From an uncultured Planctomycetia bacterium (GTDB taxonomy: Bacteria; Omnitrophota; Gorgyraeia; Gorgyraeales; Gorgyraeaceae): 64,000 nt of DNA. The position numbers and the translations under genes were made by a program. Below the pieces are notes generated by a model. It searched no databases, was not told the origin of the DNA, and was given only the letters and a program-made list of their open reading frames with translations. Positions within the stretch are counted from its first letter, which is position 1; each line of letters starts with the position of its first letter. Below, one piece after another: positions 1,468 through 63,657 of this stretch. Location of the stretch: assembly GCA_964415355.1 (NCBI GenBank), contig CAYPYS010000007.1:11208-75207 (forward strand), read 5' to 3'.

Positions 1468-2061
1468 ATGAATAGGATTGCTTTTTTTGCATCTATATTT
1501 TTTATCGCTACGATTCTGTTCTCCGGATGCAATATTGTACCTAAATCAGTGCAGTATCAAAAAGAGGAAGAAAAGCTCATAGGTAATACAGACACCATAA
1601 ATCCCAGGGTGGAAGAGATTCAGATCGTGCTCGACGGGCTCGGATACGATATGGGTAATACTGACGGTAGAATGGGACAAAAGACGCGCGAGGCAATAAA
1701 GGAATTTCAAGAGTCACTGGGACTCAAGAGCACAGGATATATAAACGAACGCACGCTGATTCAGGTCGAAGACATCAGGAGGGTTGACGAGGATAAGGAA
1801 TTGAAGGACAAATATGGAGTGGACGTGAGGAGTCCGTATGTAGAAGAAATCGTTTCAGCTGGGTTCGAGCCCACAGCAAAGGACATACAAAATGCTTTAA
1901 AGAACGCTGGGTTTGACCCGGGCGCCATCGACGGCAAAATAGGGCCGCGGACAAAACAAGCTGTCATGGAATTTCAGAAGGTAAATGGCCTTAAGGTGGA
2001 CGGCAAGGTCGGCTCCAAGACATGGGGGGAGCTTAGTAAGTATTTAGGCGCACAAGATTAA
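1468..2061 (+). CDS. Lipoprotein with two peptidoglycan-binding (PG_binding_1-like) repeats
   Basis: 197-aa ORF with a hydrophobic N-terminus ending in lipobox-like 'LFSGC'. Two repeats are present: 'GQKTREAIKEFQESLGLKSTG' and 'GPRTKQAVMEFQKVNGLKVDG'. SD-like aaggggg lies upstream. Confidence 0.7.
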   Translation: MNRIAFFASIFFIATILFSGCNIVPKSVQYQKEEEKLIGNTDTINPRVEEIQIVLDGLGYDMGNTDGRMGQKTREAIKEFQESLGLKSTGYINERTLIQVEDIRRVDEDKELKDKYGVDVRSPYVEEIVSAGFEPTAKDIQNALKNAGFDPGAIDGKIGPRTKQAVMEFQKVNGLKVDGKVGSKTWGELSKYLGAQD

Positions 2062-2105
2062 CTTTAAGTATACACTTCAACGTTGTTGAAGTGTATACTT
2101 AAAGT
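2059..2105 (+). repeat. Intergenic palindromic repeat copy 1 (T2 TATACA-arm subfamily, centre AACGTTGTT, perfect 21-bp arms)
   Basis: taactttaagtatacacttcaacgttgttgaagtgtatacttaaagt; the leading TAA is the stop of CDS 1468-2061. Confidence 0.9.
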
Positions 2106-2512: not shown

Positions 2513-3361
2513 ATGAATTACATTAAGACTGGATTCTTGTTGGTGCTTTTGACCATGCTTTTTGTGTGGATCGGAGGACACTTTGGCGGACAGGCAGGCG
2601 CTACGTATGCGTTTATGTTCGCGCTTATAATGAATGTCGGGGCGTATTGGTTTAGCGATAAGATCGTGCTTAAGATGTACGGCACGAAAGAGGCCCAGGA
2701 GAGCGAGGTCCCCGAGCTTTATAATATAGTGAAAGAGTCGACGGCTTCTGCAAAGCTCCCGATGCCGAAGGTATGCATCGCGCCTCAAAATTCTCCGAAC
2801 GCGTTTGCGACCGGCCGTAATCCTAAACACGCGGCGGTCTGCGTGACGCAGGGCATATTAAATCTTCTGAGCCGCGAAGAATTAAAAGGCGTAATAGCGC
2901 ACGAACTCGCGCATATAAAAAATAGAGACACGTTAATAATGACAGTGGCTGCTACTATAGCCGGAGCCATTACAATGCTTGCCAGCTTGGCGAGGTGGGC
3001 CGCGATATTCGGAGGTTTCGGCGGGAGGGGCGGACGCTCTAGGGACAGCAACGTGCTCGGATATTTGTTTATGCTCATCGTTGCGCCTATAGCAGCGATG
3101 CTCATACAGCTTGCGATATCAAGATCGAGGGAATATGAGGCTGACAAAAGAGGCGCTTATATAGCGAAGAACCCCACAGGCCTGGCTGACGCGCTTTTGA
3201 AATTAGAAAAAGGTACAAGGCGTTATCCTGTACAGGCTAATAATGCAACAGCTCATCTTTTCATTGTAAATCCTTTGCGGGGCAAAGGCCTGGCAGCTCT
3301 TTTCAGCACTCATCCTCCGGTCAAAGACCGCGTAGAAAGACTCAGGAAATTAAATGTCTAA
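2513..3361 (+). CDS. htpX: Zinc metalloprotease HtpX (peptidase M48)
   Basis: 'HELAHIKNRD' HExxH motif, 4 TM segments, typical HtpX N-terminus and 'NAFATG' motif. SD aaggagg. Confidence 0.9.
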   Translation: MNYIKTGFLLVLLTMLFVWIGGHFGGQAGATYAFMFALIMNVGAYWFSDKIVLKMYGTKEAQESEVPELYNIVKESTASAKLPMPKVCIAPQNSPNAFATGRNPKHAAVCVTQGILNLLSREELKGVIAHELAHIKNRDTLIMTVAATIAGAITMLASLARWAAIFGGFGGRGGRSRDSNVLGYLFMLIVAPIAAMLIQLAISRSREYEADKRGAYIAKNPTGLADALLKLEKGTRRYPVQANNATAHLFIVNPLRGKGLAALFSTHPPVKDRVERLRKLNV

Positions 3362-3396
3362 CTTTACACTTTAACATTGTTAAAATGTAAAGTTAG
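3359..3396 (+). repeat. Palindromic repeat copy 2 (T1, fwd)
   Basis: taactttacactttaacattgttaaaatgtaaagttag; TAA is the htpX stop. Confidence 0.9.
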
Positions 3397-3607: not shown

Positions 3608-3635
3608 TTGACTTGAATTTTTTAGATGATATACT
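3608..3635 (+). promoter_or_regulatory. Sigma70-type promoter (proximal) for nrdJ-dcd
   Basis: TTGACT (3608-3613), 16-nt spacer, TATACT (3630-3635), immediately downstream of the NrdR-like boxes. Confidence 0.5.
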
Positions 3636-3654
3636 TATTTTTATCACATAACCT

Positions 3655-3692
3655 TAACTTTACACTTTAACGTTGTTAAAATGTAAAGTTAG
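3655..3692 (+). repeat. Palindromic repeat copy 3 (T1, fwd), located in the nrdJ 5' UTR
   Basis: taactttacactttaacgttgttaaaatgtaaagttag. It lies between promoter 3608-3635 and the nrdJ SD and is not at a gene 3' end. Confidence 0.9.
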
Positions 3693-3711
3693 GGATTAAG
3701 AGGGGGTGAAG

Positions 3712-6012
3712 ATGCAGGTAGATGTAGTCAGCAGGAAAAAATTGAATATCTCCGAGAATTGCCTTAAGGTCCTTAAAAGAAGATATCTAAAAAAAGATAA
3801 AAATGGAAATGTTATAGAAGCGCCCGAAGAAATGTTTGCGCGTGTCAGCCGGCACATAGCGCAAGCCGATAAATCATATGGCGCGACAGCCAAGGAGATC
3901 AAGAAAACAGAGGAAAAATTTTACGATTCACTTAGCAATTTTGAATTCGTACCAAACAGCCCTACTTTAATGAATGCCGGAAAGGACCTCGGACAATTAT
4001 CTGCCTGTTTCGTGCTGCCCATTGGGGATTCGATGGAGTCGATTTTTGATGCGATAAAAAATACCGCCATGATACATAAAAGCGGAGGCGGGACCGGATT
4101 TAGTTTTTCGAGGCTACGACCGAAAAACAGTGTTGTGCGTTCCACTGGAGGCGTCTCGAGCGGCCCGGTTTCATTTATGAAGGTATTTAACGCAGCGACC
4201 CAGGCCGTGAAACAAGGCGGAACGCGTCGCGGCGCAAATATGGGCATATTGCGCGTTGATCATCCTGACATCCTTGAATTCATAAAGTGTAAAGAGAACG
4301 ATAAAGAGATCACAAATTTCAATATTTCTATAGCTGTCACGGAAGATTTCATGAAAAAGGTAATAGAGGAAAAAGAGTATGATTTGATAGATCCTCATGC
4401 AAAAAATGTTGTTTCCAGGCTTAAGGCAAAAGAAGTCTTTGATCTCATTGTCGAAATGGCATGGAAGAACGGCGAGCCAGGCATTGTTTTTATCGACAGG
4501 ATCAACAAGGATAATCCTACGCCTGCGCTGGGAGACATTGAGAGCACTAATCCATGCGGCGAGCAACCGCTTTTGCCTTTTGAAAGCTGCAACCTGGGTT
4601 CTGTAAATCTTTCCAAAGCAGTGAGCGCAAACGGAAAAAAAGAAATAGACTGGGAAAAATTAAAAAGATTAACGCATTTGGGCGTACATTTTCTGGATAA
4701 CGTGATAGATAGAAATAAATTTCCTCTGGATCAAATAAAAGATATGACCAGAAGTAACCGAAAGATAGGGCTGGGGGTGATGGGCTGGGCAGATATGTTG
4801 ATCCAGCTGGAGATACCCTATAATAGCGACGAGGCTGTTGACCTGGCTGAGAAAATCATGGGATTTATAGACGGAGAGGCGGGAAAGAAATCCGAAGAGT
4901 TGGCTGGCCTGCGAAAACCGTTTCCTTCCTATAAAGAGAGTGTTTTTTCTAAAAATGGCAGAGGCAAAGAAATCAGAAATGCCACGCTTACTACAATAGC
5001 GCCTACGGGAACGATTTCTATAATATCAAACTCCTCCAGCGGCATTGAACCTTTGTTCGCTATTTCGTATTACAGGAACGTTATGGATAATGATAAACTC
5101 ATCGAGGCGAATCCATTATTTGAAGAGATCGCGAAGAGAGAGGGGTTTTATTCAAGGAAACTGATGGAGACCATCGCGGATAAGGGCTCTATCAAGGACA
5201 TAAAAGAAGTGCCTGAAAAATACAGAAAGATTTTTGTCACCTCGCACGATATTGCTCCGCTATGGCACATAAGGATGCAGGCGGCGTTTCAAAAATATAC
5301 TCACAACGCTGTTTCTAAGACGGTAAATTTTCACAATGACGCTACGAAAGATGACGTGAGAGAAGTGTACATGCTCGCTTATAAATTAGGTTGCAAGGGC
5401 GTGACGATTTACAGGGATAAGAGCAGGGAGGAGCAGGTCTTGAACATAAATTCCGGTTCTAAAAAATCTTCTGGCGAGACAAAGCCGACCCAGGAGGTTA
5501 AAGATAAGAAAGCAGTTGCCCCGCGTCCCAGACCTGCAGTCACTACCGGGACCACGACAAAGGTAACCACAGGTTGCGGTAACCTTTACATTACAATAAA
5601 TGTGGATGACAGAAGCATGCCGTTCGAGGTATTCATCCAGATGGGAAAGGCTGGGGGTTGCGCTGCGAGCCAGCTTGAGGCGACAGGAAGGCTTGTGTCT
5701 CTGGCGCTTCGTTCCGGCGTGGAGAATAAAAAGATCATAGATCAGCTGAGAGGCATACGATGCCCTTCTCCGTCGTGGGAAAAAGGCGGAAGGATTTTTT
5801 CTTGCGCTGACGCGATTGCGAGAGTTTTAGAGTTAAGACTGGGCAATGGCAAAATGCACCATGAAGAAGAGGAATTAGAAAAACATTCTCCGCACACGAT
5901 GATAGAAGATAAGCTTGGCAATGTCGTCGGTGTTTGTCCTGATTGCGGGGCTGCACTGAGACATGAAGAAGGCTGTGTGGTCTGTCGTTCCTGCGGATAT
6001 TCTAAATGTTAA
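3712..6012 (+). CDS. nrdJ: Adenosylcobalamin-dependent (class II) ribonucleotide reductase
   Basis: Active-site string '[18 protein letters not shown]', 'TIAPTGTIS', and a Cys-rich C-terminal tail '[25 protein letters not shown]'. The ATG at 3712 is preferred over the ORF-track GTG at 3706 because the SD aagaggggg is better spaced. Confidence 0.9.
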
Positions 6013-6013
6013 C

Positions 6014-6568
6014 ATGTCAATAAGACCCGATTCCTGGATCAAGAGAATGGCTTTAGAGCACGACATGATAAGGCCATTCGAGCCCACCCAAGTAAAAAAC
6101 GGCAACATTTCTTTTGGTCTATCCAGTTTTGGATATGATATGAGGATCGCTGACGAGTTCAAGCTATTAAGATCCTCAGGCGCGAAAGACGCCCTGGACC
6201 CTAAAAAAATAAATCCGGATCTATTCGAAGATTATAAGGGTAAAGTTTGCGTAATCCCGCCGAATTCTTTTGTCCTGGCGCGTTCGCTCGAATATTTTAA
6301 GATCCCAAGAAATGTCCTGGCGCTTTGTACTGGAAAAAGTACTTATGCGAGGATAGGGGTGGTGGTAAATGTAACGCCGCTGGAGCCTTCCTGGGAAGGT
6401 TTTATCACAATGGATATATCGAACACGTCCCCCTATCCTGTAAAGATTTATGCCAATGAGGGCATTGGCCAGATAGTTTTTTTTGAATCACAGGAGGCCT
6501 GCGAAATCAGTTATTCTGACCGCAAAGGCCGATATCAATCCCAAACCAAAATCACTTTACCCACCTAA
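6014..6568 (+). CDS. dcd: dCTP deaminase
   Basis: '[13 protein letters not shown]...IRPFEP', '[10 protein letters not shown]' and '[11 protein letters not shown]' are typical Dcd strings. The ATG at 6014 (2 nt after the nrdJ stop) is preferred over the ORF-track start 5963, which overlaps nrdJ. Confidence 0.85.
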
Positions 6569-6603
6569 CTTTACATTTCAACAACGTTAAAGTGTAAAGT
6601 TAG
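6566..6603 (-). repeat. Palindromic repeat copy 4 (T1, rev)
   Basis: taactttacatttcaacaacgttaaagtgtaaagttag; TAA is the dcd stop. Confidence 0.9.
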
Positions 6604-6617: not shown

Positions 6618-7373
6618 ATGGGAAACATAAAACTTGTGCTTTTAAGGCACGGCGAGAGCATATGGAACAAGGAAAATAAATTTACAGGGTGGACAGATGT
6701 TGATCTGTCTGAAAAAGGCGTGGAAGAGGCAAAAGAATCGGGCAGGGTTTTGAAAAAAGAAGGCTACATGTTTGACGTCGCGTTTACGTCTGTCTTGAAG
6801 AGAGCGATAAGGACGCTGTGGCTTGCTTTGGACGAGATGGATCTCATGTGGATTCCTGTCTACAGGTCGTGGCGTTTGAACGAGCGTCATTACGGCGCGC
6901 TGCAAGGACTAAACAAGGCAGAGACGGCAAAAAAATTCGGCGAGGAACAAGTGCTTATCTGGCGTAGGAGTTATGACGTGCCGCCTAGTGCATTGGATAA
7001 GACAGACGAGCGCTATCCCGGCAATGACCCAAGGTATCACGTATTGGATGAAAAAGATATCCCGCTTACCGAGTGTCTTAAAGATACAGTGGCCCGATTT
7101 CTTCCTTATTGGCACGATACGATAGCGCCTGCTGTGAAATCTGGCAAACGCGTACTTATAGCTGCGCACGGAAATAGTCTGCGTGCGCTCGTGAAATATC
7201 TGGACAATATCTCTGATGAGAAAATAGTAAAACTGAATATCCCCACCGGTATCCCGCTTATTTATGAACTAGACAAAGAGCTGAAGCCCGTCAGGCATTA
7301 TTACCTGGGCGACCCTGAAAAAGTCAAAAAGGCAATGGAAGCCGTAAGTAAACAGGGCAAGGCCAAGACCTAA
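6618..7373 (+). CDS. gpmA: 2,3-bisphosphoglycerate-dependent phosphoglycerate mutase
   Basis: '[29 protein letters not shown]', 'ERHYGALQG', '[10 protein letters not shown]'. SD aggagga. Confidence 0.9.
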
Positions 7374-7406
7374 CTTTACACTTTAACGTTGTTGAAATGT
7401 AAAGTT
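7371..7406 (+). repeat. Palindromic repeat copy 5 (T1, fwd)
   Basis: taactttacactttaacgttgttgaaatgtaaagtt; TAA is the gpmA stop. Confidence 0.9.
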
Positions 7407-7434
7407 GACTTATAGCAGCTATATATGATAATAT

Positions 7435-8346
7435 ATGGCGGTCATGGCTAAGACAAAGCCGAAGCACGTTGTAATTTATCTATGCTTTAGAATTTTTAGC
7501 TTCTTTGTGTTTATGCTGCCGCTTAGGTGTGGCCTGGGGATCGGCCAGGGCCTTGGTAGATTGGCTTTCCGCCTTTTTAAAAAAGCTCGATTAAAGGCAT
7601 TAAAGAACCTGGATGCCTCATTTGCGAATTCCAGGACCAGAGAAGAGAAAGAGTTTATAGCTGAAGGGGTCTTTGAAAATCTTGGAAAAAATATTATCGA
7701 GATTATTTGCCTCTCGAAATTCGATAGAAACAATATAGACGCCTATATAAAATGCAAAGGGCTTAAGGCTATTACAGGGTTGATAGAGAAAGGGAAAGGC
7801 GGCGTTGTTCTCTCTGCTCATTTTGGTAATTGGGAGCTCATAGCGCATTATTTTGGGATCAAAGGGTATTCGGTTAACGTCATCGCCAGGCGAGTGAGGA
7901 TGGGACAGTTCGAGAATTTCCTAGCCAAAGCAAGGAAGCGCAACAGCGTAAAGATCTTATACAGGGACGCGTCCGCGAAAGAGACGGTCGCGCTTTTGAA
8001 GAAAAATGAATTCGTAGGCGTGATGCCTGACCAGGATATGGACAGCGTCTCCGGCGTCTTCGTAGATTTTTTTGGGCGCAAGGCATTTACGCCGAACGGG
8101 CCAGCGGTTTTAAATCTTATGACAGGAGTGCCCATAATTCCTTGCTTTATTGTCAGAAAGGATTTTGGCCACGAGATCGTTATAGATGAGCCCATAGAGC
8201 TCAGCACTACAGGAGACAGGCGCAGAGATATTCTGGAGAACACCCAGAGATATACAAAAGTAATAGAGGATCAAATAAGGAAATACCCGTCGCAGTGGGT
8301 CTGGTTTCACGACAGATGGAAGACAAAGGAAGAACAATGCGCTTAA
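7435..8346 (+). CDS. Lipid A biosynthesis (LpxL/HtrB-family) lysophospholipid acyltransferase
   Basis: N-terminal TM segment, 'SAHFGNWE' acyltransferase motif, and a location next to lptC/A-lptB. Confidence 0.7.
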   Translation: MAVMAKTKPKHVVIYLCFRIFSFFVFMLPLRCGLGIGQGLGRLAFRLFKKARLKALKNLDASFANSRTREEKEFIAEGVFENLGKNIIEIICLSKFDRNNIDAYIKCKGLKAITGLIEKGKGGVVLSAHFGNWELIAHYFGIKGYSVNVIARRVRMGQFENFLAKARKRNSVKILYRDASAKETVALLKKNEFVGVMPDQDMDSVSGVFVDFFGRKAFTPNGPAVLNLMTGVPIIPCFIVRKDFGHEIVIDEPIELSTTGDRRRDILENTQRYTKVIEDQIRKYPSQWVWFHDRWKTKEEQCA

Positions 8347-8382
8347 GTTTACACTTTAACATTGTTGAAATGTATACTTAAG
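8344..8382 (+). repeat. Palindromic repeat copy 6 (T1/T2 hybrid arms, fwd)
   Basis: taagtttacactttaacattgttgaaatgtatacttaag; TAA is the acyltransferase stop. Confidence 0.85.
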
Positions 8383-9254: not shown

Positions 9255-9992
9255 ATGATTAATAACAACGGACATTTATTACGAATACAGGGCCTCGAGA
9301 AATCTTACGACGGTAAAAGAGTCGTGAACGGCGTTAGCATGGAAGTGAAAAGAGGCGAGATCGTCGGGCTTTTAGGTCCTAACGGTGCGGGAAAGACTAC
9401 GACTTTTTATATGGTTGTGGGGATGCTAAAGCCTGAAGGAGGCAAGATAACCTTTGACGGGCAAGATATCACAAAACTGCCCATGTACAGGCGTTCGCGA
9501 TGCGGCATTGGTTATCTTTCTCAAGAGCCTTCTATTTTTAGAAAACTTACGGTCGAAGAGAATATAATGGCGATATTAGAGACGCTGGATCTTCCGCGCT
9601 CAGTCCGCAAGAAAAGGCTAAAGGAACTCCTGGGGGAATTACATATTGCGCATCTCGCTAAAAAGAGCGCGTACATGCTTTCCGGCGGGGAGAGACGCAG
9701 ATTAGAAATAACAAGGGCGCTTGTGACAAACCCGCTGTTTATACTTCTTGATGAGCCTTTTAGCGGCATTGACCCCATTGCAGTGTCTGATGCGCAGGAC
9801 ATAATAGCTGACCTGAGGCAAAAAGGCCTCGGCATCCTTCTTACCGATCACAATGTTAGAGAAACACTTGAAATAACAGACCGTTCGTATATAATGGCAG
9901 AAGGAAGAATACTGATATCAGGGACAGCTGATAAACTTATAAAGGATTCAAGGGCCCGTGAAATATATTTGGGTGAGAATTTCCGCATGTAA
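9255..9992 (+). CDS. lptB: LPS export ABC transporter ATP-binding protein LptB
   Basis: Walker A 'GPNGAGKTT', 'YLSQEPSIFRKLTVEENI', signature 'LSGGERRR', Walker B 'ILLDEPF'. Confidence 0.9.
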   Translation: MINNNGHLLRIQGLEKSYDGKRVVNGVSMEVKRGEIVGLLGPNGAGKTTTFYMVVGMLKPEGGKITFDGQDITKLPMYRRSRCGIGYLSQEPSIFRKLTVEENIMAILETLDLPRSVRKKRLKELLGELHIAHLAKKSAYMLSGGERRRLEITRALVTNPLFILLDEPFSGIDPIAVSDAQDIIADLRQKGLGILLTDHNVRETLEITDRSYIMAEGRILISGTADKLIKDSRAREIYLGENFRM

Positions 9993-10026
9993 CTTTACAT
10001 TTCAACAACGTTAAAGTGTAAAGTTA
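9990..10026 (-). repeat. Palindromic repeat copy 7 (T1, rev)
   Basis: taactttacatttcaacaacgttaaagtgtaaagtta; TAA is the lptB stop. Confidence 0.9.
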
Positions 10027-11146: not shown

Positions 11147-11152
11147 CGTTAT

Positions 11153-55600: not shown

Positions 55601-58600
55601 ACAGGATATATGGCACAAATGTCAGGCCAAAGATCATATTCCTCTACAGGCGTCCGAGGGAAGAACTGGACCTCAAGGCGCGCGCAGAGGAATTAAAACA
55701 TCTCAGGGAAGAAGGCGTTGACACAATAGACATAGACGTATATGAGCTTCACCAGACCGTTGAATATCTCGGAAATACAAAGGGACATATAGAAGGAATA
55801 AGGGCCATAAGGTATGACAGAAAAGGCGCTAAGGAAGGCGTGCTGGTCGACATCCCCGTTGACATGGTTGTAGAAGCCCTGGGAGCAAAGCCGGCGACCG
55901 AGATATTAGGACCTTCCATACCTTTAAATAGATACGGGTATATCGAGATAGATAATCACAGGACAATGCAGGTAAGAGACATGGACGGCTCTGATGGCCT
56001 GGCGCCTGTATATGCTGTCGGAGACTGCGCAGAGGTGGACGCTATAGATGAAAGGATTATGGCGACCGCTGTCCTTGCTGCAACGCATGGAAAAAGGGCA
56101 TCCGAGGCACTCATAGAAAGACTGGATAATGAGACTGGCATGGTTCAGAGATATATAGATATCGATAAGGTATTTTTTAAAGCTACTCCATACAGGATGC
56201 ATGAGATATTGGAAAGGCGCAGGATAGGCAAAAGAGAGCTTGTATCCAGGCCGCTACGCGGAGATACGGGCAATGTTTTTAGCGAGCAGAGGATCGTGGA
56301 ATTTACTATTTATGCGCCTCATGTAGCCCGCAGGATCAGACCGGGCCAGTTTGTAACGCTGATGGCAGATGAATACAGCGAGAAAATACCTATAACATAT
56401 GTCGGTCTTGGAAAGATAAAAGGCAGTATACGCCTTGCCATCCTTGACGCAGGCGAATCAACAGTAAAAATAAATAATATGAAAAAGGGTGATTTGTTTT
56501 ACGCAGTCACCGGACCTGCAGGAGAACCTTCGATCTTTACAGGGCTGGCAGGCGAGGTAGACCTGGTGGGGTTGGGCAGTGGCATAGCCGCGATTGTCGG
56601 CATCGCCGAGCACAGGGCAGACCTGGACAGGAAATATAAAGAGTTGATGGCCAGGCTGGCAGGCAATTCCCGCGCAGATGTAGTCCTGTCGCTGATAGAA
56701 GAGATTTGGTCAGAATTGAGTCTTGCAAAGGATGATCTTTTGCACTATATAGTCGATGCGATAAGAGACAGGGATTATAATGAAGCAAAGAATCTGTTGA
56801 CAGCACTTGCCTACTCTATTGAACAGGATTTTCCGGCGAGCGAGCTTATAGCAGATGCAGAAGCACTGGTTGATACGATAACCATGCTCGAGGATTCTGT
56901 AGAAGACGAGGATGAATTGAATCTGCTTGTAAAACAGGAGGTCTATCAGGCGATAGACGATATATGGGAAGAGTTTGAGATATTAAAGAGAGAGAAACTA
57001 TTAAGGGAAATCAGTGATTTTGTATCTTCCGGAAATTACAAAAATGCATCTAATGCCTTGAATGCCGTTATCGGCGCAGGCTTTGAGACAAAGGTATTTC
57101 TGGCTGTCGGGAATAAGGATCTTTTGATGTATAAGACCGAGCTGGAAGAGGCTGTTGGCAGGGAGAACATATTCATAGCGCTTGAGGATGCCGAGGGCTT
57201 TGATCCGCATGCCGAAGGATATGCCAGCCTGATAGCGCATGAGAACAGGTTTTTTACAGGTTATGGCACTATTGCTTTTGGGGATTATTTAGGCAGGACG
57301 CATGATCCTATTAGCGGATTGTTGGTAGCAGGACCTGCGTTCGCAATGAATCTTTTTGTGCCATTGGTCAGAGAAGCAAACAGGCCTGATATCCTGAGTA
57401 CGAGAGACGTGTGGATGAGTACTAACCCGCCCATGTACTGTGCCTACGGCGGTTGTTTGATGTGTCTGGTGGCTACAGAACAGGCGATTCCGTGGCGCGG
57501 GTGTTTAGGTCCTGAGGCAGAGGCAGATATGCTTATCGGCGATTCTATTGTCAAGGGGCTTGAAATGAGCAAGCCTCAAGACATAATGCCGGGCGTTATA
57601 TTCAGCACGTCACCTTCTGTTGACAGGGAGCAAGCGATATCTGATATAGTGCAGGCGCTTGATGAGATTCTTTATATGCCTACTGTAGATGGTAAATTAT
57701 TTGTTGCCATATCTGATGCAAAGGGTTCGTTTATCGCTGAGTTAAGAAATGGTATTTTAGAGGAGAGATTATCTGACGAGGATATTGATGCAGTGCTCGA
57801 GAATATTGATTGGGAAAGACTAGGTGTTTTTAAGCCAGGCCATAAGATAAGGTTTGCAGGTAGGATATCCGATGTCTCAGGATTAGAGCTTGATAGGGTC
57901 ATGGAATTGCTCGGACTGACAATGCAGGGTGGAAGCGGTGCAGAAGATTCTGATTCCGGGATGACGCTCGATGATTTATTCAGTAGGAGCTTGGATCTCT
58001 CGATACTTGGCATAGAGGTCATCGGAGAATTCCGCGAGGTCTCTATATCGCCTTCCGGTTTTTCACGGCTCCGGGCGTTCCTTGAGGAGATCGGCGATAG
58101 ACAGAAGTTGGAAGAAATTTTGGGACTCGAAGGAAGTGAGTTTATTTTTGTTATGAATGGCGCGAATGAGCTTGTCGCGATTGTGATCCGCAACGAGACC
58201 AGGCAGAAAGAGCTTCTATGGATAGAGGGAGAGGCATCGTCCGAACTTTTCAGCTATCTGACTCTGAGAGCCTCTCTGCGTGGCAGTTCTATATCCGCGG
58301 ACCTGACAGTGGAGGAGATAAAACCCGGCGCAATACTCGGACCCGGCGCGACCACTACTCCCGCAAGCTCTGCCCTGGCAAAGACAGGGACGTGGACCAC
58401 GAAATACGCAGAGCATGATCTTGATGCGTGCGTGCAGTGTGGCCTGTGCGCACTGGTATGTCCCGAAGGCGCGATAGCGTTTGATATGGAGCCGGCGCTG
58501 AATACAGGCAGGCTGGTCCTTCCGACAAATCCTGATTATTGCAAGGGCTGCGATGCCTGCGTGGTACATTGTCCTTTAAAAGGATACGCGCTTAAGATGA

Positions 58601-61600
58601 TAGAAAAGACAGACCTTCGCCAGGTAGCAGTATCTCTGGATACGAATCCTGAGGGAAGAGGCGTTGTTATCGAAGGCGCTCCGGCATTACAGTTTGAAGG
58701 GCTGTTTAAGGAAGGCATTGATAGATTCAAAAAGGCATTAGGGCTCGATGTAGTTGAGATAATCAGCGAGAGTGAATCTTTTGTGCAGGTGAGGTATGAG
58801 AGAGGTGACATAGCATATCTTTTTACATTCGATAAGAAAAATACAAGATTGATCTTGAAACCATTGAGGACATTTGCCGTCGTTGGCCTTGAGAGTAAAA
58901 ATATTGATCTGGCAGATGCATTGCGCAGCAGGGGATTTGCGGTTACCGGCTTGATTTCTACTAAAGACAGAGGTTTTAGAGATAAATTAATGGAGGCCGA
59001 GAGACAGGGTATCAGTGTTTATGCGATAGAAGCAGGTTTGCTAAACCCTGGTATTAGCGGCAGTCTTCAGGCATTGCTTAATGACATCGAACGCCTGCGT
59101 CTTGCTAGATTTGTCGCGGTTGACACAGAGACGATCAGGGAGATAATCGGCCTGGACGAATACACGAAACTCGTCGAGGAGATAAACGAATATACACATA
59201 ATTCTATAATAAACTCTGTGGATTTGTTGCCGACAGGCAACACAGACTTTGATGAGGTCATGGCGAGTTTTGCTCCCGAATGGCAGGACCAGGTTCGCGA
59301 CCTCGCGCCCGGACACGGCCTATGCCCCGGCTGCGGTCAGCCGACAGACACGCACCTTGTATTAAAGGTAGCGGATGAACATGGAATGGCGCCGGTGGGT
59401 GTCATTACGACAGGCTGCCAGGAAGTCTCGACCACTAACTGGCCTTTTAATTCATGGCGCATACCAATGGTCCACGGAAACTATACAGCATCAGCCGCAA
59501 TCGTCAGCGGTATCTTCCGTGTCTATCAGTGGTTCAAAAAGATGGGCGTAAGTGTTTACGGGGATAAAGAAATCTTGCCTATAGTTATTATGGGAGACGG
59601 TGGTTTTGCAATAGGGCTAAATGTAATATCAGGCGGCCTGGAAAAGGGATTACCGATTTTATATCTGGTCGAGAATAATTCAGGCACTCAGAATACGGGC
59701 GCGCAGGCATCCACGCTTTCGATGCCGGGCATAACTGCGCAAGGCGCCTCACAGGTAAAGACCACGCAAGGCGTGTATATACCTGATATAGCAAAGGCGC
59801 ACGGACCTAACGTCTATTACGCAAGGGTTTCCAATGCATATCCCGAAGATTTTGAGAGAAAATTAAACCGCGCAATGGAATGGATAAAACAGGGAAGAGG
59901 ACCTGCGGTCATAGAGTCTTTTAACACCGCATGCCCTACCGGCTGGAAGTCTGACGCGACACAGAGCCAGGAAGAAACCTCTCTTTCGGTCCAGACAGGC
60001 GTTGGCATGACTGTGCTTTTTGAGCAGGTCGGGAATCGCATAAGGATAACGCAACCACCTCTTCTAAGAGACGGAAAGATATATATAAATACAGAATATA
60101 TGCGAAGCCTGGAATATGAGTTAGGTCATTTAAGGAATGCCGGCGGCAAGAGGCTGTTATCTGACAGACAGGTGGCTTCCATGATTTCGCATATCAAGAA
60201 GAGAAGGGAATTTATTTTGGCAAGAGAGCTTGAAAGAAGACAGCCTAAAAAACCAGGCCTGCCGTTTGTCCAGCTCGACTTAGATGCGTTAAAGAACCTG
60301 CTTGTCCTTCATTCGTTCAACCTGCCTCTGGAGTCAGACCTATTGATAGACAGGTTGGATGTCCTGGGCCTTTCCGGAGACGAGATAGAGGACATTGCGC
60401 AGCATCGGTCAGAGGGTAATGAATTCAGAAACAGGCAGGACGTGCTTCGGTTTATAACCGATGTGCGTTACAGAGAGGTTACGGAAAGAATACTTGATAT
60501 ATATGACACAGTCGAGATCAGGGATTTTATTATGGAATGGACAGAGACAAAGGAAGAGGGAAATATCGATTTCGAGGAGACCGTTGTATTTGAGAAGATA
60601 GAAGATATTTTGAAAGTCCCGGGCATAGGGCCAGTGACGTATGATGCCGTAAGTCCGTATCTTACATTAGAACCGAGAAGACCTCATATATTCGAATACT
60701 TATCGAGACAGGGAAGATTCAGGAGGCTTCTTGGCTGGGATGACGAGGCGTTTCTGGGAGACATGCAGCGAGATGTGGACGCGCATATACTTAGGCTGAT
60801 GGCGCAGCATGAAAACGACAGGGCTTTCTTTGAGAACTTTGATAATTTACTGGCCAGAGGAGAAAAAATCCCGGTAGAGCAGTTCAGGTACAAGTCAGCA
60901 AGGGAGGCGCATGACAAGGCCCTTGTTCCTGCTAGAGTCATACCTGCGGATCCGGAAAGAAACATCAGGATTTTAGAACGCAGGGCAAGGCTAGGGGATA
61001 GGGTTTTTGAAGAACGCTGGCATGGAAGAGGCGGCCAGGGTGCTATTACTGCGGCAACGCTTCTGGCAACATATGCGGGCGAGGTAGAAGGTATAGGCAT
61101 TCAGGCGTTTCCGCACTTTGGGGTCGAACGCGCAGGTGCGCCTGTAAAGGCATATGTCAGAATGGGTAATAATATAAAACAGCATGACCCTGTTACGGAA
61201 CCTGATGTAGTAGTGGTTATAGATGAGTCTTTGCTGGAACTTCCCGAAGTGTTGGAAGGTATAAAGCCGGGCGGTTTTCTATTGGTGAATAGCAAAAAGC
61301 CGGCTGAAAAAATACTGGAAGAATTAAGGGCTAAAGGCAATGCGCTTAAGGATATTACTCTTTTTAGCGTGGACGCTACCGGTATAAGCATAAAACACAT
61401 GGGAAGAAATCTCCCTAATATTCCTATGCTGGCTGCGAGGATTATGGTTTCGAGGCTTACTGATGCAGACTTGGGTCCGGCAGAAGGCGCCACGGATTAC
61501 ATAAGGCAGCTTTTAGTAGAGATGTTTGGAGAAAAGATAGCCGGATTAAATTACGACGCGATGCAGGAATCAGTACGTTCTATAGATGCTGTATCAGGCG

Positions 61601-63657
61601 CTGTTGAAGAGTTGATAGAAGAGTTTCTGGCAAAAAGAGAGCCTGTTGAAATTGATGTTGCTCAACCGGAAGAAGAAGACGCAGCGCTAAAAAGTAATGT
61701 CAGGCTCATGAATTCAAACAAGGCAGCTGCTATTGCACAGGTGCAGTCTGGCGTAAAGTATGTCCCCGGCTATCCGACAACCCCTGCGAGCAGTGTGGTC
61801 GAGATATTGGATACATATCAGGACAAGGGCTTGCCGCTTATAGTATCGCTTCTTCCTGCAGAAGACTCAGTGGGCGGAGAATTACTTGGCACTGCGCTGG
61901 CAGGAGGCATGCCTGCGACAGGGACTACATCAGTGGCATTGGCGTATATGTTTAACCAGCATCTTGCAGATATGGTAGGTAAAAGGACGCCTGTTGTCGT
62001 AAATGTGCCTGTCCGCGCATTGAATATAGGTTCCTTGAGTATATTTCCCGACGAGACAGACATAGCAATGTTCAGGGATTATGGTGTGTATCTGCGCGCG
62101 CGCAATGCGCAGGAAGTGTATTATTTCAATATCATTGCGTGGAGGATCGCAAAGAAACTTAGGATGCCTGTATTCGTAGTGTATACGGGATTCCGCAACA
62201 GCCATACCACAGAACCTGTCGAAATACTCGGTGATTACGATAGAATAGAGGAGTATCTGGGCGGGACAGGATTATTTTCTATAAGAGATACTATACTGGA
62301 CCAGGAATCGCCTAAGATGATAGGGCCTGTTGTCGGCAAAGAGATCATGATGGAGCAGATGGCAGAGCTTTTTGAGGATATAGCACGAAATCAGGACCAT
62401 GTAATAGAGGAGGCTTTTGCGGAATTTGAAAGGCTCTTTGGTATTAGGTTTGATAGATTCAGGCAGTATAGGGTCGAGGATGCCGATGAGATAATAGTGG
62501 TGCAAGGAGATACAGGCGAGACTATCGAGCTTATGGTCGACAGATTAAGGGACCAGGGCAGAAGGGTCGGCGTAATAGAGATAGCTACAATAAGGCCTTT
62601 CCCCGGGAAGGAATTAAGAGAGGCGCTTGTTAATATAAATCCGAAGATAATAACTGTCCTGGATAATGCGCCGAGCCACTATTTGTATGATGATGTCGTA
62701 AGGTCTATCCAGTTTACAGATATACAGGTCTGGGGACCTGTGATATATGGTCTGGGCGGGAGGGATTTCTTCAGACAGGATGCGGTAACGCTTTATGATA
62801 CGCTGATCTCGCTTAGAGTGCTTCAGGCATTAGGAGCAAAAGAAAGTCCTGTTTCTCTGACCAGAGCGTCTCTGACGCAGCTTTTGAATGAGGAGGCAGT
62901 GACACTGGGCATGGCAAAGCACGGATTTGTCGAACCAGGCGATGCGCTTGCGGGCCGGCGAGGAGCAAGAAGCATCCCGGCGATACTTGACACGCTGGAT
63001 TTTGCAGCCAGCTCGGCTGATATGCCTGGATTTTCAAGAAACGCTGTCTTTGAAAAGTTGACGCAGGGTGAGCTCCTCAAGCTTTTTGGCGACGAGTATT
63101 ATTTTGGAGCTCGCAGGAAATATAAGCATGATCTGCTTATGCACGCGCTGGTGAATGAGTTGGCAGTCAGGCTTTCTAGGCAGTTACTGGGATCTAATAT
63201 CGGCACTATAGACGAGAGGACGCAGGCAATAGATGCGCTCGTGCATTTGAGTGACATAGAAGCGGATAAGGAACTCGCCAGAACAAGCTCTGAGAGTTTG
63301 CGCAAGTATCGACGCAGGGATCAGGTTGCTTCAACGGACCAGATTATCGCAGTGTCTGCCGCACAGGTCATAGCCGAGAAAAAAGAATTCGAGGCATGGA
63401 TAGAGAACCAGTCAGAGAATATTGCTGTAGTTATAATAGCTACGGCTGAAGAGTATTATCAGGTCAGGGAGTATGAGGACATCGCCTATATAAAGGTAGT
63501 GGGCAAGGACATTAGCGAAGCGCATGGCCTTACCTTGAAAAGGTTGTTGGCATTGCACGGTCATTTAGATAATTTCGGTGGCTTCAGGCTTGGCGACGAA
63601 AAGTTCGATCTAGACGAATACAGGTCAGCCCTGACCGAGCTCTCCACCGGCATCTAA
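52546..63657 (+). CDS. Giant fusion ORF 3 (3703 aa): signal-like leader, unknown ~600-aa region, NfnB/GltD-like flavoprotein, NfnA/PyrK-like module, PorD-, PorB-, PorC- and PorA-like 2-oxoacid:ferredoxin oxidoreductase modules, shared C-terminal domain
   Basis: Uninterrupted 11.1-kb ORF with SD aaggag 7 nt before the ATG. Domain motifs are listed in the separate domain features. Confidence 0.85.
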   Translation: MTWKIIRKITSIVILITFLSTNVIYAAPGPRKTLRVPLGFAREKLLEQEQTGLPTKEMLLMMAQAVAMRMDDESILMDLGTTFFNTAFRRNLGSPIEIRRNKNTGTVHIRYNDRYISITRSGNISVSSRINFDKAELVIASIKPLVASSSDPTDKKDRTIGSLLGLMETFADLGLKPGEKITINDIIPERKKQDGTLYSRTTVSREFKDAVALDLLRLTGNKIKNSNEYEVLKSFTREQLSRLPGHIRKKLNRGRIRSDEIEELRRIFIAETLMGQGTLLKVFLAGLAGFQEALADIPYDLSGANTETVQSLFTAVENIVFLARDFDKKDPAYAEAYIYESLGFVDIDGKRRLALVITPFEDRRKTGSLDVLVFDSLLSANYTSHAIKATEIEMVSTIVGRLDEKDIISLSLKFRAEYLDNPDGPGTSDTRRSAKDFFLYFASKRNATQEILDLDEELIDGLEGRDLEIKERMARLKEGVSDKDLLDEWFIEIMQGKDTLVQYLLYTGDAATFWYDLLLELDYTRAINEMFLSRPDAMTTYARNAYEQAVVASWIYIHRADFGSPLGERAAEDRIEDFQLALTWDTLGIPGQKALGMTKAEFPVCLNCVGRPCQHGPLGSVAAQTRTRSGFASGIRSLIEDNNVSASVQLEGVFISEGVSYLTHLYNYAELLLIDQADVTRWMNMTARELDSEIRLLTDDADAIDQEAKNIAEPHCPLEVPIADMFRLMRQDRFEEALEILNNSSFLAGIFGLVCPQEHLCQAACVQGRLSDRPLPIDIGKLEYLIELTYMRINGELPMPEVAPFTGKYVAIIGSGPAGLQAAYDLAREGHKVVLFEHLHKVGGVLVYGIPTFRLPPELLEEKVRILKEMGVNFVTNAIIGEDGAYTIEEMRRSFDAVIVGVGAGQSNKMEIRGKVVLLDEKTGRARLEVPEYAKRVPIPGRALNGIYSAYHFLSWTYLMNAIKPGYDTPIPLSKNILQAFTESRATGEEKEVTVVVEGIGNVALDSGRTALRWINVLNRIYGTNVRPKIIFLYRRPREELDLKARAEELKHLREEGVDTIDIDVYELHQTVEYLGNTKGHIEGIRAIRYDRKGAKEGVLVDIPVDMVVEALGAKPATEILGPSIPLNRYGYIEIDNHRTMQVRDMDGSDGLAPVYAVGDCAEVDAIDERIMATAVLAATHGKRASEALIERLDNETGMVQRYIDIDKVFFKATPYRMHEILERRRIGKRELVSRPLRGDTGNVFSEQRIVEFTIYAPHVARRIRPGQFVTLMADEYSEKIPITYVGLGKIKGSIRLAILDAGESTVKINNMKKGDLFYAVTGPAGEPSIFTGLAGEVDLVGLGSGIAAIVGIAEHRADLDRKYKELMARLAGNSRADVVLSLIEEIWSELSLAKDDLLHYIVDAIRDRDYNEAKNLLTALAYSIEQDFPASELIADAEALVDTITMLEDSVEDEDELNLLVKQEVYQAIDDIWEEFEILKREKLLREISDFVSSGNYKNASNALNAVIGAGFETKVFLAVGNKDLLMYKTELEEAVGRENIFIALEDAEGFDPHAEGYASLIAHENRFFTGYGTIAFGDYLGRTHDPISGLLVAGPAFAMNLFVPLVREANRPDILSTRDVWMSTNPPMYCAYGGCLMCLVATEQAIPWRGCLGPEAEADMLIGDSIVKGLEMSKPQDIMPGVIFSTSPSVDREQAISDIVQALDEILYMPTVDGKLFVAISDAKGSFIAELRNGILEERLSDEDIDAVLENIDWERLGVFKPGHKIRFAGRISDVSGLELDRVMELLGLTMQGGSGAEDSDSGMTLDDLFSRSLDLSILGIEVIGEFREVSISPSGFSRLRAFLEEIGDRQKLEEILGLEGSEFIFVMNGANELVAIVIRNETRQKELLWIEGEASSELFSYLTLRASLRGSSISADLTVEEIKPGAILGPGATTTPASSALAKTGTWTTKYAEHDLDACVQCGLCALVCPEGAIAFDMEPALNTGRLVLPTNPDYCKGCDACVVHCPLKGYALKMIEKTDLRQVAVSLDTNPEGRGVVIEGAPALQFEGLFKEGIDRFKKALGLDVVEIISESESFVQVRYERGDIAYLFTFDKKNTRLILKPLRTFAVVGLESKNIDLADALRSRGFAVTGLISTKDRGFRDKLMEAERQGISVYAIEAGLLNPGISGSLQALLNDIERLRLARFVAVDTETIREIIGLDEYTKLVEEINEYTHNSIINSVDLLPTGNTDFDEVMASFAPEWQDQVRDLAPGHGLCPGCGQPTDTHLVLKVADEHGMAPVGVITTGCQEVSTTNWPFNSWRIPMVHGNYTASAAIVSGIFRVYQWFKKMGVSVYGDKEILPIVIMGDGGFAIGLNVISGGLEKGLPILYLVENNSGTQNTGAQASTLSMPGITAQGASQVKTTQGVYIPDIAKAHGPNVYYARVSNAYPEDFERKLNRAMEWIKQGRGPAVIESFNTACPTGWKSDATQSQEETSLSVQTGVGMTVLFEQVGNRIRITQPPLLRDGKIYINTEYMRSLEYELGHLRNAGGKRLLSDRQVASMISHIKKRREFILARELERRQPKKPGLPFVQLDLDALKNLLVLHSFNLPLESDLLIDRLDVLGLSGDEIEDIAQHRSEGNEFRNRQDVLRFITDVRYREVTERILDIYDTVEIRDFIMEWTETKEEGNIDFEETVVFEKIEDILKVPGIGPVTYDAVSPYLTLEPRRPHIFEYLSRQGRFRRLLGWDDEAFLGDMQRDVDAHILRLMAQHENDRAFFENFDNLLARGEKIPVEQFRYKSAREAHDKALVPARVIPADPERNIRILERRARLGDRVFEERWHGRGGQGAITAATLLATYAGEVEGIGIQAFPHFGVERAGAPVKAYVRMGNNIKQHDPVTEPDVVVVIDESLLELPEVLEGIKPGGFLLVNSKKPAEKILEELRAKGNALKDITLFSVDATGISIKHMGRNLPNIPMLAARIMVSRLTDADLGPAEGATDYIRQLLVEMFGEKIAGLNYDAMQESVRSIDAVSGAVEELIEEFLAKREPVEIDVAQPEEEDAALKSNVRLMNSNKAAAIAQVQSGVKYVPGYPTTPASSVVEILDTYQDKGLPLIVSLLPAEDSVGGELLGTALAGGMPATGTTSVALAYMFNQHLADMVGKRTPVVVNVPVRALNIGSLSIFPDETDIAMFRDYGVYLRARNAQEVYYFNIIAWRIAKKLRMPVFVVYTGFRNSHTTEPVEILGDYDRIEEYLGGTGLFSIRDTILDQESPKMIGPVVGKEIMMEQMAELFEDIARNQDHVIEEAFAEFERLFGIRFDRFRQYRVEDADEIIVVQGDTGETIELMVDRLRDQGRRVGVIEIATIRPFPGKELREALVNINPKIITVLDNAPSHYLYDDVVRSIQFTDIQVWGPVIYGLGGRDFFRQDAVTLYDTLISLRVLQALGAKESPVSLTRASLTQLLNEEAVTLGMAKHGFVEPGDALAGRRGARSIPAILDTLDFAASSADMPGFSRNAVFEKLTQGELLKLFGDEYYFGARRKYKHDLLMHALVNELAVRLSRQLLGSNIGTIDERTQAIDALVHLSDIEADKELARTSSESLRKYRRRDQVASTDQIIAVSAAQVIAEKKEFEAWIENQSENIAVVIIATAEEYYQVREYEDIAYIKVVGKDISEAHGLTLKRLLALHGHLDNFGGFRLGDEKFDLDEYRSALTELSTGI
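54358..56125 (+). other. NfnB / GltD-like (glutamate synthase small-subunit family) FAD/NAD(P)H oxidoreductase module with a split N-terminal Fe-S motif
   Basis: 'CLNCVGRPC' ... (~100-aa insert) ... 'HCPLEVPI', 'GLVCPQEHLCQAAC', dinucleotide fold 'KYVAIIGSGPAGLQAAYDLAREGHKVVLFE', 'GGVLVYGIPTFRLP', 'VYAVGDCA'. Confidence 0.75.
56165..57530 (+). other. NfnA / PyrK-like ferredoxin-NADP reductase-type module (FAD barrel, NAD fold, 2Fe-2S) with a ~155-aa helical insertion
   Basis: 'RPGQFVTLM', 'IPITYVG', 'TGPAGEP', 'DLVGLGSGIAAIVGIAEH', then an insertion at 56610-57085. The fold resumes at 'KVFLAVGN' and ends in the Cys motif 'MYCAYGGCLMCLV...RGCLGPE'. Confidence 0.65.
58320..58610 (+). other. 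PorD-like (delta subunit) 2x[4Fe-4S] ferredoxin module
   Basis: 'KPGAILGPGATTTP...KTGTWTT' followed by 'CVQCGLCALVCP' (58428-58463) and 'CKGCDACVVHCP' (58540-58575). Confidence 0.85.
59300..60030 (+). other. PorB-like (beta subunit) thiamine-diphosphate-binding module
   Basis: 'GHGLCPGCG', 'TTGCQEV', TPP motif 'GDGGFAIGLNVISGGLEKGLPILYLVENN' (GDG-X24-NN), 'NTACPTGW'. All four Fe-S Cys positions are present. Confidence 0.85.
60365..60665 (+). other. Two ComEA-like helix-hairpin-helix-type segments in the PorB-PorC linker
   Basis: 'IEDIAQHRSEGNEFRNRQDVLRFI' and 'ILKVPGIGPVTYDAVSPYL' resemble the A-x-x-I-x-x-yR-x-x-G-x-F...L-x-x-V-PGIG pattern. Confidence 0.35.
60990..61490 (+). other. PorC-like (gamma subunit) module
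   Basis: 'WHGRGGQGAITAATLLA', 'AFPHFGVERAGAPV', 'PDVVVVIDESL', 'VDATGISIKHMGRNLPNIPMLAA'. Confidence 0.85.
61695..62815 (+). other. PorA-like (alpha subunit) module
   Basis: 'MNSNKAAAIAQVQSGVKYVPGYPTTPASSVVE', 'AEDSVGGELLGTALAGGMPATGTTSVALAYM', 'TPVVVNVPVRAL', 'PVFVVYTGFRNSHTTEPVE', 'IRPFP'. Confidence 0.85.
63337..63654 (+). other. Shared C-terminal domain (~106 aa), copy in giant ORF 3
   Basis: DQIIAVSAAQVIAEKKEFEAW...AVVIIATAEEYYQVREYEDIAYIKVVGKDISEA...DNFGGFRLG...DLDEYRSALTELSTGI. Confidence 0.8.

Follow-up and report, generated by a model that had tools for sequence, protein, structure and literature searches.

The DNA described here is a 64,000-nt stretch (hereafter the window) of contig CAYPYS010000007.1, from an uncultured bacterium whose nearest annotated protein matches, in our protein searches, belong to Candidatus Omnitrophota. 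The window has a G+C content of 44-48% and a strongly positive GC skew, and its + strand carries every gene except one. Between the cistrons of its long operons lie 37 copies of a 37-nt imperfect palindrome, approximately one per 1.7 kb, which together make up approximately 2% of the DNA. The distance from one copy to the next ranges from 0.04 to 11 kb, with whole genes in between. At most gene ends that carry a copy, the first three bases of the repeat are the in-frame stop codon of the upstream gene.

Copies were called using exact and fuzzy searches; 36 differ from the consensus by <=9 mismatches, and the variant at 11108 was added. Gene identities were verified using Pfam, NCBIfam and the called genes of related contigs; a look-up of the ClpP of the window by its exact sequence returned no record. 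The DNA compared totals 1.33 Mb, in which each related genome is only partly represented. It comprises contigs of the same population (L135, L136 and L144, 99.95% identical to the window), species B (L132, L137 and L143, ~86% identical), species C (L142), species D, which is the metagenome-assembled genome (MAG) CAYULJ01, labelled Planctomycetia and also called MAG D here (contigs ~83% identical), and outgroup loci (L133 and L138, at ~73%), together with more distant relatives.

The unit reads TAACTTTACA-N17-TGTAAAGTTA, with the full consensus TAACTTTACACTTTAACGTTGTTGAAATGTAAAGTTA. Its 10-mer TAACTTTACA occurs 54 times in the window, compared with ~0.12 times in shuffled sequence. Both orientations are found, 23 copies being F (the consensus as written) and 14 R (its reverse complement). 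Positions 1-10 and 28-37 are perfect inverted repeats, i.e. terminal inverted repeats, while the inner arms contain two non-Watson-Crick positions (11/27 and 14/24). Only a 3-nt loop separates the arms, and there is no internal region. The consensus has a G+C content of 10/37 and, as RNA, forms a single hairpin with 16-17 pairs (-12.4 and -10.7 kcal/mol, z ~ -4.8). The TAA bases form the first three stem pairs, so the stop codon is itself part of the hairpin. Each end of the element reads TAA on its own strand, and every strand has stops in all three frames (TAA at offset 0, TAA or TGA at 13 or 22, and TAA at 29); frame 0 is open after the first TAA.

A minority sub-family, the B-type, has GTATAC in place of CTTTAC/GTAAAG and includes the copies at 2065, 11108, 11818 and 21099, with a hybrid at 8344. 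The palindrome is kept in all of the sub-families TTTACA, TTCACA, GTATACA and GTTAACA. Across 58 distinct copies, pairing is seen in 96% of stem cells, double-sided changes are seen in 7 of the 17 stem pairs, and the covariation score was not matched by any shuffle. Because of these paired changes, and because the palindrome is kept across sub-families, what is preserved is the stem, or at least the two-fold symmetry. The master copy of the window has one C.A and one G.U in either orientation, and perfect hybrids are rare, which suggests that a master is copied, not that the sequence is optimised.

Some copies are accompanied by other small repeats. A second hairpin repeat, GTCATKCCCG..CGGGAATGAC, directly follows B-type copies at 2106-2135 and 11150-11178 of the window and at ~3700-3760 of L142. 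Copies in sister species contain, between GAAA and TGTAAAG, a small hairpin nested within them (GCTTGTGCCACGAAGTGGTA or an extended form of it, or else TCCGCCTGAGGCGGA in the loop), as at 1619-1680 and 2502-2590 of L132, near 1906-2037 on the reverse strand of L022, and at 4357-4413 of L141 and 4975-5021 of L142. The nested hairpin occupies this fixed point, and a second tiny element therefore seems to target the first.

Several conventional identities were considered for the repeat and rejected. It is not an intrinsic terminator: it has no T tract, its copies were not flagged by a terminator scan, and GGAGG-type Shine-Dalgarno sequences follow the copies. Copies inside the 15-kb block between the consensus promoters at 28676 and 43896 also rule this out. 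As a promoter, it would offer only a few weak 9-of-12 matches partly overlapping copies, with poor hexamers and a 19-nt spacing, and it would fire both ways. Integron attC sites, for which we took one fixed orientation, a length of 57-141 bp, accessory cassette genes and a nearby intI as the criteria, do not fit a 37-nt unit present in both orientations next to housekeeping genes (nusA, infB, rpsA and aminoacyl-tRNA synthetases), and there is no integrase in the window. The copies are not CRISPR repeats either, being separated by whole genes rather than forming an array with spacers of ~25-50 nt. Nor do they belong to an Rfam family: in an Rfam scan of the window, only the small subunit rRNA, whose 16S gene begins at 63906, reaches the gathering score.

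All copies are listed in Table 1. Gene-terminal copies number 33 of the 37, and the remaining four (3655, 21099, 36393 and 51953) are second copies within the same spacer. The original prediction for this DNA was that the repeat supplies the in-frame TAA stop of 26 of 33 upstream genes. Counted strictly, the first TAA of the element is the in-frame stop in 25 of the 33 (those with d = 0 in Table 1), and in 26 when the extended palindrome at 2059 is included. The open frames closed by the 25 element TAAs are 202-3727 codons long. Frame 0 is used in 25 of 26 stop-supplying copies, against the one third expected (p = 2e-11), which bears out the predicted in-frame excess. The exact abutment of the TAA to the coding sequence held as well, as did all the coordinates named and those gene names that we checked. 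As also described before, proS enters its copy and uses an internal TAA, at 27089 and thus 13 nt inside, and six genes (clpP, hppA, dxr, rseP, rimP and plsC) end before the element, with measured gaps of 2-36 nt.

Table 1. Copies of the 37-nt repeat in the window. The distance d is counted from the stop codon's first base to that of the element; d = 0 denotes abutment.
Feature	Position	Strand	Relation to genes and remarks
Extended B-type copy, TAACTTTAAGTATACAC..GTGTATACTTAAAGT	2059-2105	+	First TAA = stop of peptidoglycan-binding protein gene 1468-2061
Canonical 37-mer frame within the extended copy	2065-2101	+	
Copy	3359-3395	+	TAA = htpX stop, d = 0
Second copy, spacer between htpX and ribonucleotide reductase (RNR) gene	3655-3691	+	Not gene-terminal; 14 nt before RNR start
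Copy, asymmetric core reversed	6566-6602	-	TAA = dcd stop, d = 0
Copy	7371-7407	+	TAA = gpmA stop, d = 0; right end fuses with -35 TTGACT of next promoter
Hybrid A/B-type copy	8344-8380	+	TAA = stop of lpxL-like gene 7435-8346, d = 0; missing in MAG D
Copy	9990-10026	-	TAA = lptB stop, d = 0
B-type variant, TAAAGTATAC..	11108-11144	+	TAA = tig stop, d = 0
B-type copy	11818-11854	-	19 nt past clpP stop (11796); 11796-11817 resembles left half of an older copy starting at clpP TAA
Copy	13009-13045	+	TAA = stop of aminotransferase gene 11836-13011, d = 0
Copy	14668-14704	-	TAA = serA stop, d = 0
Copy	15972-16008	-	TAA = stop of homocitrate/isopropylmalate synthase-like gene, d = 0
Copy	17277-17313	+	TAA = purA stop, d = 0
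Copy	19423-19459	+	2 nt past hppA stop (19418)
Copy	20258-20294	-	TAA = OmpA-family gene stop, d = 0
Copy	21055-21091	+	TAA = uppS stop, d = 0
B-type second copy, uppS-cdsA spacer	21099-21135	-	TTAA..TTAA flanks
Copy	21965-22001	-	TAA = cdsA stop, d = 0; sister species TGA two codons earlier
Copy	23170-23206	+	7 nt past dxr TAG stop (23160)
Copy	24339-24375	+	36 nt past rseP stop (24300)
Copy, first 13 nt encode proS end	27076-27112	+	proS stop = internal TAA 27089
Copy	29240-29276	-	8 nt past rimP stop (29229); position kept in four species
Copy	30590-30626	+	TAA = nusA stop, d = 0
Copy	32836-32872	-	TAA = infB stop, d = 0
Copy	33865-33901	+	TAA = trpS stop, d = 0; sister species only TAAC-TTAAG
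Copy	34641-34677	-	TAA = scpA stop, d = 0; clean filled/empty pair with L132 (native TAG)
Copy	36355-36391	+	TAA = pheA stop, d = 0; L132 junction empty
Second copy	36393-36429	-	1 nt past 36355 copy
Copy	37515-37551	-	TAA = hisC stop, d = 0
Copy	38576-38612	+	TAA = aroF stop, d = 0
Copy	39483-39519	+	TAA = tyrA stop, d = 0
Copy	40157-40193	+	5 nt past plsC TAG stop (40149)
Copy	42639-42675	+	TAA = rpsA stop, d = 0
Copy	43851-43887	+	TAA = tyrS stop, d = 0; consensus promoter next, at 43896
Copy	51897-51933	+	TAA = stop of 1269-aa PGM/PGI fusion open reading frame (ORF), d = 0
Second copy, TTCACG variant	51953-51989	+	Same spacer as 51897
Copy	63655-63691	+	TAA = stop of 3703-aa oxidoreductase-fusion ORF, d = 0

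The proteins that end at an element are neither shorter nor longer than their relatives, and the element TAA occupies the exact position of the native stop. Three kinds of comparison agree on this. Family profiles reach the last residue of gpmA (248/248), lptB (239/239), serA (525/525) and trpS (328/328). The aroF product ends ..GR[DE][ILV] at the identical residue in 10 element-free relatives, whose own stops are TAA, TAG or TGA. The window also agrees with sister species in the last sense codons of nusA, trpS, scpA, pheA, tyrA, ompA and other genes. Comparison of orthologue C-termini with element-free genomes had been proposed together with the original prediction, as a way to learn whether native stops were replaced or reused; the positions were reused and protein length is unchanged.

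A second route to the same arrangement is represented by cdsA, where L132 reads ATG TGA CCC TAACTTT and the window ATG TGG CTT TAACTTT. Here, the native stop has been lost, so that the gene extends by two codons and the in-frame TAA of the element takes over. In addition, in three species (window 27076-27091, L132 7618-7633 and L013 1943-1960), the repeat itself provides the final four or five codons of proS together with its stop, a fixed coding use of the element.

Many positions are common to two to four species, namely those at dcd, htpX, rimP, nusA, infB, aroF, tyrA, plsC, dxr, ompA, uppS, tig, the aminotransferase gene and the leuA-like gene. Copies at shared positions follow the consensus of their own genome, for example C4-G34 in the window versus G4-C34 in species D, and at rimP, aroF, tyrA and dcd the asymmetric core points one way in the window and the other way in species B. 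Presence or absence differs between the window and sister species at scpA, pheA, trpS, clpP, serA, purA and the peptidoglycan-binding gene. At scpA, L132 reads CGCACT TAG AAAGAGG and the window CGCACT TA(ACTTT..AAAGTTAG)GAAAGAG; this clean pair shows a 36-nt insertion into a native TAG, with TAA recreated on the left and TAG still showing on the right. At pheA, L132 reads CCC TAA AATAAAAATT, and the window has two copies (73 nt) between the TAA and AATAAAAATT. Sister species retain the outer bases of the element at trpS (TAAC-TTAAG), clpP (TAACC-TTAAG) and the peptidoglycan-binding gene (TAA-ACTTAG), and these remnants most likely mark internal deletions. Three of the five 'empty' sites are thus probably secondary deletions, since terminal remnants were kept. 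At the junction orthologous to window 8344, on the reverse strand of L022, MAG D has two tandem GAAAGTGTAAAGTG units that match the right arm of the element and are partly coding sequence of the downstream lptC-like gene.

All five empty sites have YTAR or CTTA(A/G) at the junction, and every B- and D-type copy has TTAA on both sides. The target is palindromic, and duplication and inverted repeat are therefore inseparable. The contigs of the same population show no insertion polymorphism and so provide no fresh insertion sites. One explanation offered with the original prediction was insertion at TAA or TTAA, the terminal TAA being target sequence. This has direct though slender support in the reuse of native stops, the insertion into TAG at scpA and the TTAA flanks, but the TAA is not merely target: copies that lie against no gene also have it (3655, 36393 and 51953 in the window, 1353 and 4587 in L144), and it is therefore part of the repeated unit. 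The check for a duplication, made on the five filled/empty pairs, gave no one duplication length (TA or TTAA).

How far could a shortage of spacer explain the overlap with stops? Among 98 co-directional junctions with spacers of 0-40 nt in element-free relatives, the median spacer is 6.5 nt. Of all TA dinucleotides between stop and start, 55% belong to the stop codon, or 75% when the last 12 nt are spared, and in 75 of 88 junctions that TA is the sole usable one. For the window, we used a null model in which each junction was rebuilt without copies and one TA was drawn at random. This expects 13.1 abutting copies of 32 when all TAs are allowed, and 19.2 when the ribosome-binding region is spared. 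Abutment in species D is found at 18/42 tight junctions versus 5/27 roomy ones. A TA-type target together with purifying selection accounts for most, not all, of the signal.

Outside the window, the family occurs only within a small clade of Omnitrophota. When one genome per species was scanned, it turned up in three records, abundantly in MAG CAYULJ01 and once each in Omnitrophota UBA10183 and CAJVXN01, and protein searches added relatives from the same population, species B, species C and the outgroups. It was not found in 80 metagenome loci with aroF orthologues (54-84% identity; Omnitrophota beyond the sister species), the viral contigs searched contain zero copies, and the repeat is not mentioned in the Omnitrophota genome papers that we read. 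A related family in L133 shares the ends of the 37-mer but differs in its centre, TAACTTCACAAAAT..ATTTTGTGAAGTTA. The UBA10183 copy (L001 3333-3369) has CAA..TTG ends and lies 3 nt before a start codon, in flanks that are 66-75% identical to the MAG D locus L041. In CAJVXN010000008, a near-consensus copy (L024 4816-4852) abuts the feoB stop and is the sole copy in that 8-kb stretch, whose DNA matches neither the window nor the other loci compared; this copy hints at horizontal spread.

Species D, in which the consensus is 41 nt (CT-TAAG..CTTA-AG), allowed a wider tabulation. Using simple longest-ORF calls, we found 101 genes with a copy near the stop: 35 with d = 0, 13 that read into the copy (offsets 13 and 29), 21 with d = 5-10 and 32 with larger d. 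Distances of 1-4 nt were never seen, as would follow if the CT belongs to the element. The frame bias found in the window recurs, with frame 0 used in 35 of 48 cases, five-fold over the other frames (p = 2e-8), but the high level of abutment does not, its share being 35% in species D versus 76% in the window. In species B, by a hand count from junction tables, 10 of 15 intact gene-terminal copies abut (6/10 in L132, 3/3 in L137 and the dcd copy in L143). Four copies of the window species upstream of the window do not abut at all; two lie in divergent promoter regions and two in a convergent spacer, 35 and 78 nt past a stop. Copies near promoter-like sites or divergent promoters (window 3609-3691; L144 1353-1389 and 4587-4623) would form transcript 5' ends, and that at 3655 lies ~10 nt downstream of a promoter-like TTGACT-17-TATACT.

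Relatives without the family (L052, L055, L056 and L138) have other lineage-specific palindromes, GTAACCAGTAAC.., GGGGTCAGACCC.. and GCTCGCCTCGCTTCGCGGGCGAAGCGGGC, at the hisC, aroF, serA and clpP junctions. More distant relatives have abutting or overlapping genes (TAATG, ATGA) at the same junctions.

Possible sources of mobility were also searched for. In the partial genomes, no pair of unpaired ends lying 0.3-4 kb apart encloses a transposase. A 1-kb end pair in L051 was considered as a parent element and rejected, as it encloses a radical-SAM gene. For an IS200-like TnpA/RAYT, tblastn with an IS200 TnpA query gave no match in the 1.33 Mb of partial genomes; RAYTs are divergent.

[quoted passage not shown] New copies would enter at a TA-containing target (YTAR or TTAA-like). 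As the element begins with A after the target TA, an insertion into a TAG or TAA stop would recreate TAA and leave the protein untouched. Insertion elsewhere in junctions that have almost no spacer would disrupt the coding region or the ribosome-binding site, and survivors would therefore accumulate on stop codons. By a minority route, a redundant native stop would decay and be replaced by the in-frame TAA of the element. Any effects on termination, mRNA stability or coupling would follow from the placement rather than cause it.

Several observations weigh against this reading. The 25 abutting copies exceed the 19.2 expected under the more generous null (P ~ 0.001), and the excess lies in long spacers, where the stop was one TA of many (1/27 at htpX, 1/12 at tyrS, 1/12 at giant ORF 2 and 1/15 at giant ORF 3). 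Abutment in the window is independent of room, being 14/18 at tight and 8/11 at roomy junctions. A-type copies are flanked by CTAA..TTAG, which is inverted, only the TA being direct, and the 36-nt and 73-nt inserts at scpA and pheA fit no one simple rule. No transposase or long element with the same ends was found in the 1.33 Mb of partial genomes and, to our knowledge, 37 bp is below the length of any MITE. Copies within one genome are near-identical and differ between genomes at conserved positions, a homogeneity that needs turnover, gene conversion or selection. Finally, the sense strand of species D has 29 G.U versus 11 A.C (p = 0.006), and loop orientation there is biased 2:1 (44:22); in the window, it is 18:11, which is not significant, and the G.U/A.C asymmetry is uninformative because the master copy has one of each. 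The strand asymmetry of species D could reflect RNA-level selection or, equally, an insertion strand bias. The residual stop preference, the within-genome homogeneity and the strand bias of one species leave a limited but real place for selection on mRNA or translation.

The strongest alternative, which we regard as unlikely though deserving of serious attention, is accordingly that placement is selected: the stop-containing hairpin would act on the mRNA, and abutting copies would have been kept as the best-working ones. The hairpin might be a 3' stabiliser or processing mark (5' when in a 5' untranslated region) that punctuates polycistronic transcripts. It might otherwise be a translational insulator melted only by the terminating ribosome, setting reinitiation at the next cistron. 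The original prediction noted that REP hairpins within ~15 nt of stop codons reportedly interfere with termination and lower expression in E. coli; no paper to that effect turned up in the library searched. Selection would account for the abutting excess over the TA null in long spacers and for the lack of dependence on room in the window. Many orthologous junctions are occupied in four species despite ~15% coding divergence, by copies near the genome-specific consensus whose stem is maintained by covariation. The excess of G.U over A.C and the orientation bias in MAG D, the unrelated palindromes at the same junctions in other lineages and the copies in 5' untranslated regions just downstream of promoters also speak for it, and structure right after a stop reduces translational coupling according to a review (PMC12548453). 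However, only 35% of the gene-terminal copies of MAG D abut, both orientations occur and may be flipped at the same junction between species, and, whichever way the window master is oriented, its sense RNA retains a C.A mismatch. The element has been lost without visible compensation at scpA, pheA and trpS in L132 and at serA and purA in L137, in close relatives that lack the element the genes of the same operons abut or overlap, and copies outside operons do not abut.

Selection could be taken further, to a genome-wide system of punctuation in which stops locked in the base of a 17-bp stem define boundaries of mRNA processing and stability and gate the passage of ribosomes, with a co-evolving trans-acting factor that would hold the copies within a genome to one sequence. 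Related lineages would then have reached the same end with unrelated palindromes. We think this rather doubtful.

A further possibility does away with any preference at insertion: copies would have landed anywhere in the spacer, and deletion or the decay of native stops would have made the element TAA the stop, an absorbing state. It draws on cdsA, where L132 has a TGA at d = 6 and the window has TGG and two further codons, and on non-abutting distances that cluster at the minimum possible, 5-11 nt. The compactness of these genomes (the median spacer of 6.5 nt in relatives) and the fact that d = 0 mostly goes back to the ancestor shared by the window and species B would also suit it. We nevertheless find it improbable. 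Multiples of three are not depleted among the MAG D copies with d > 0 (19/53), and stop decay is therefore no major flux; at rimP, dxr and plsC, distances of 8-11 nt are shared between species; the scpA and pheA copies appear to have been inserted directly into the stop; and exact deletion of stop and spacer is a rare event, of which 25 would be needed. As for a conventional signal, be it an intrinsic terminator, a promoter, an integron attC site, a CRISPR-type repeat or a protein operator, the stable hairpin, the TTTACA and TAAAGT hexamers and the YTAAC/GTTAR ends, which loosely resemble attC core sites, do little to make it credible against the grounds for rejection given above.

If the repeat is selfish, as in the reading that we favour, it is an extreme case of a mobile element saturating a streamlined genome, with nearly every operon junction occupied and the stop codon serving as a safe landing pad. 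As the element carries stops at both ends and in every frame, the stop codon would be its only free site. If placement is selected instead, one sequence would control termination, coupling or mRNA ends across most of the genes in an uncultured bacterium of ultra-small size, and the copies would amount to hundreds of natural replicates at 0, 5-11 and >20 nt from the stop. It also matters for gene annotation that the majority of stop codons in this DNA belong to the repeat, that assemblies are interrupted at copies and that the repeat encodes the C-terminus of proS.

Other features of the region were seen in passing. The sole minus-strand gene (27115-28599), which encodes a PMT_2-family glycosyltransferase, has proS on one side and a consensus promoter on the other; MAG D has 5.2 kb at the equivalent place, and this region is therefore variable. 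The B12-dependent ribonucleotide reductase (window 3706-6012; L143 115-3729) has a LAGLIDADG intein in species B and several other Omnitrophota, and none in the window. A 68-aa membrane ORF at 2228-2434, whose orthologues match the magnetosome-associated Pfam family MamI (PF26391), has a T-tailed hairpin downstream in place of the repeat. Three very long ORFs (43966-48084, 48090-51899 and 52546-63657) look like fusions of ordinary enzymes, the fused domains including an aminotransferase C-terminus, PGM with PGI, and pyruvate:ferredoxin oxidoreductase, TPP, ferredoxin and pyridine-nucleotide oxidoreductase domains.

Among known systems, the family is best read as a new and unusually dense member of the REP/MITE-like palindromic elements, one whose termini are stop codons. 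As a short (~20-40 nt) extragenic imperfect palindrome with many copies, the 37-mer agrees with the definition of a REP. Classical REPs have a conserved GTAG or CGTC tetranucleotide at one end (PMC3733652), which is absent from the 37-mer consensus and all its variants. Their stem is G+C-rich (PMC3184786), whereas that of the 37-mer is AT-rich (10/37 G+C). Like the RAYT-associated REP/BIME families of Enterobacteria and Pseudomonas, the 37-mer has hundreds of copies, mostly at the 3' ends of genes within operons and in both orientations, with a genome-specific consensus and RNA hairpins able to affect mRNA decay and translation. It differs from them in being mostly single rather than in REPIN doublets, in its approximately one copy per gene and in terminal bases that are the stop codon.

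Like the 37-mer, the RUP elements of Streptococcus pneumoniae (associated with IS630-Spn1) and the Correia/NEMIS elements of Neisseria have terminal inverted repeats and a target that contains TA, are polymorphic in presence or absence, and are transcribed as hairpins within operons. RUP also has stops in all six frames (PMC2229807), as the 37-mer does. These elements are 100-155 bp long, with distinct ends and an internal region, whereas the 37-mer consists of two arms only. The same difference separates it from MITEs of DDE transposons (IS630/Tc1 or IS5 type), at ~50-500 bp with an internal region. The MIRU repeats (Supply et al. 1997) are reportedly intercistronic operon repeats whose ends overlap the upstream stop codon, as here, but they are said to be direct repeats of 46-101 bp in a single orientation, with a small ORF overlapping the downstream start, and not palindromes. 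Rickettsia palindromic elements are likewise small selfish palindromes tolerated in compact genomes because they are frame-compatible. They are 100-150 bp long and insert in frame inside genes, adding peptide segments to the products. The 37-mer, in contrast, closes every frame and stays at gene ends, and its sole observed coding use is the last four or five codons of proS.

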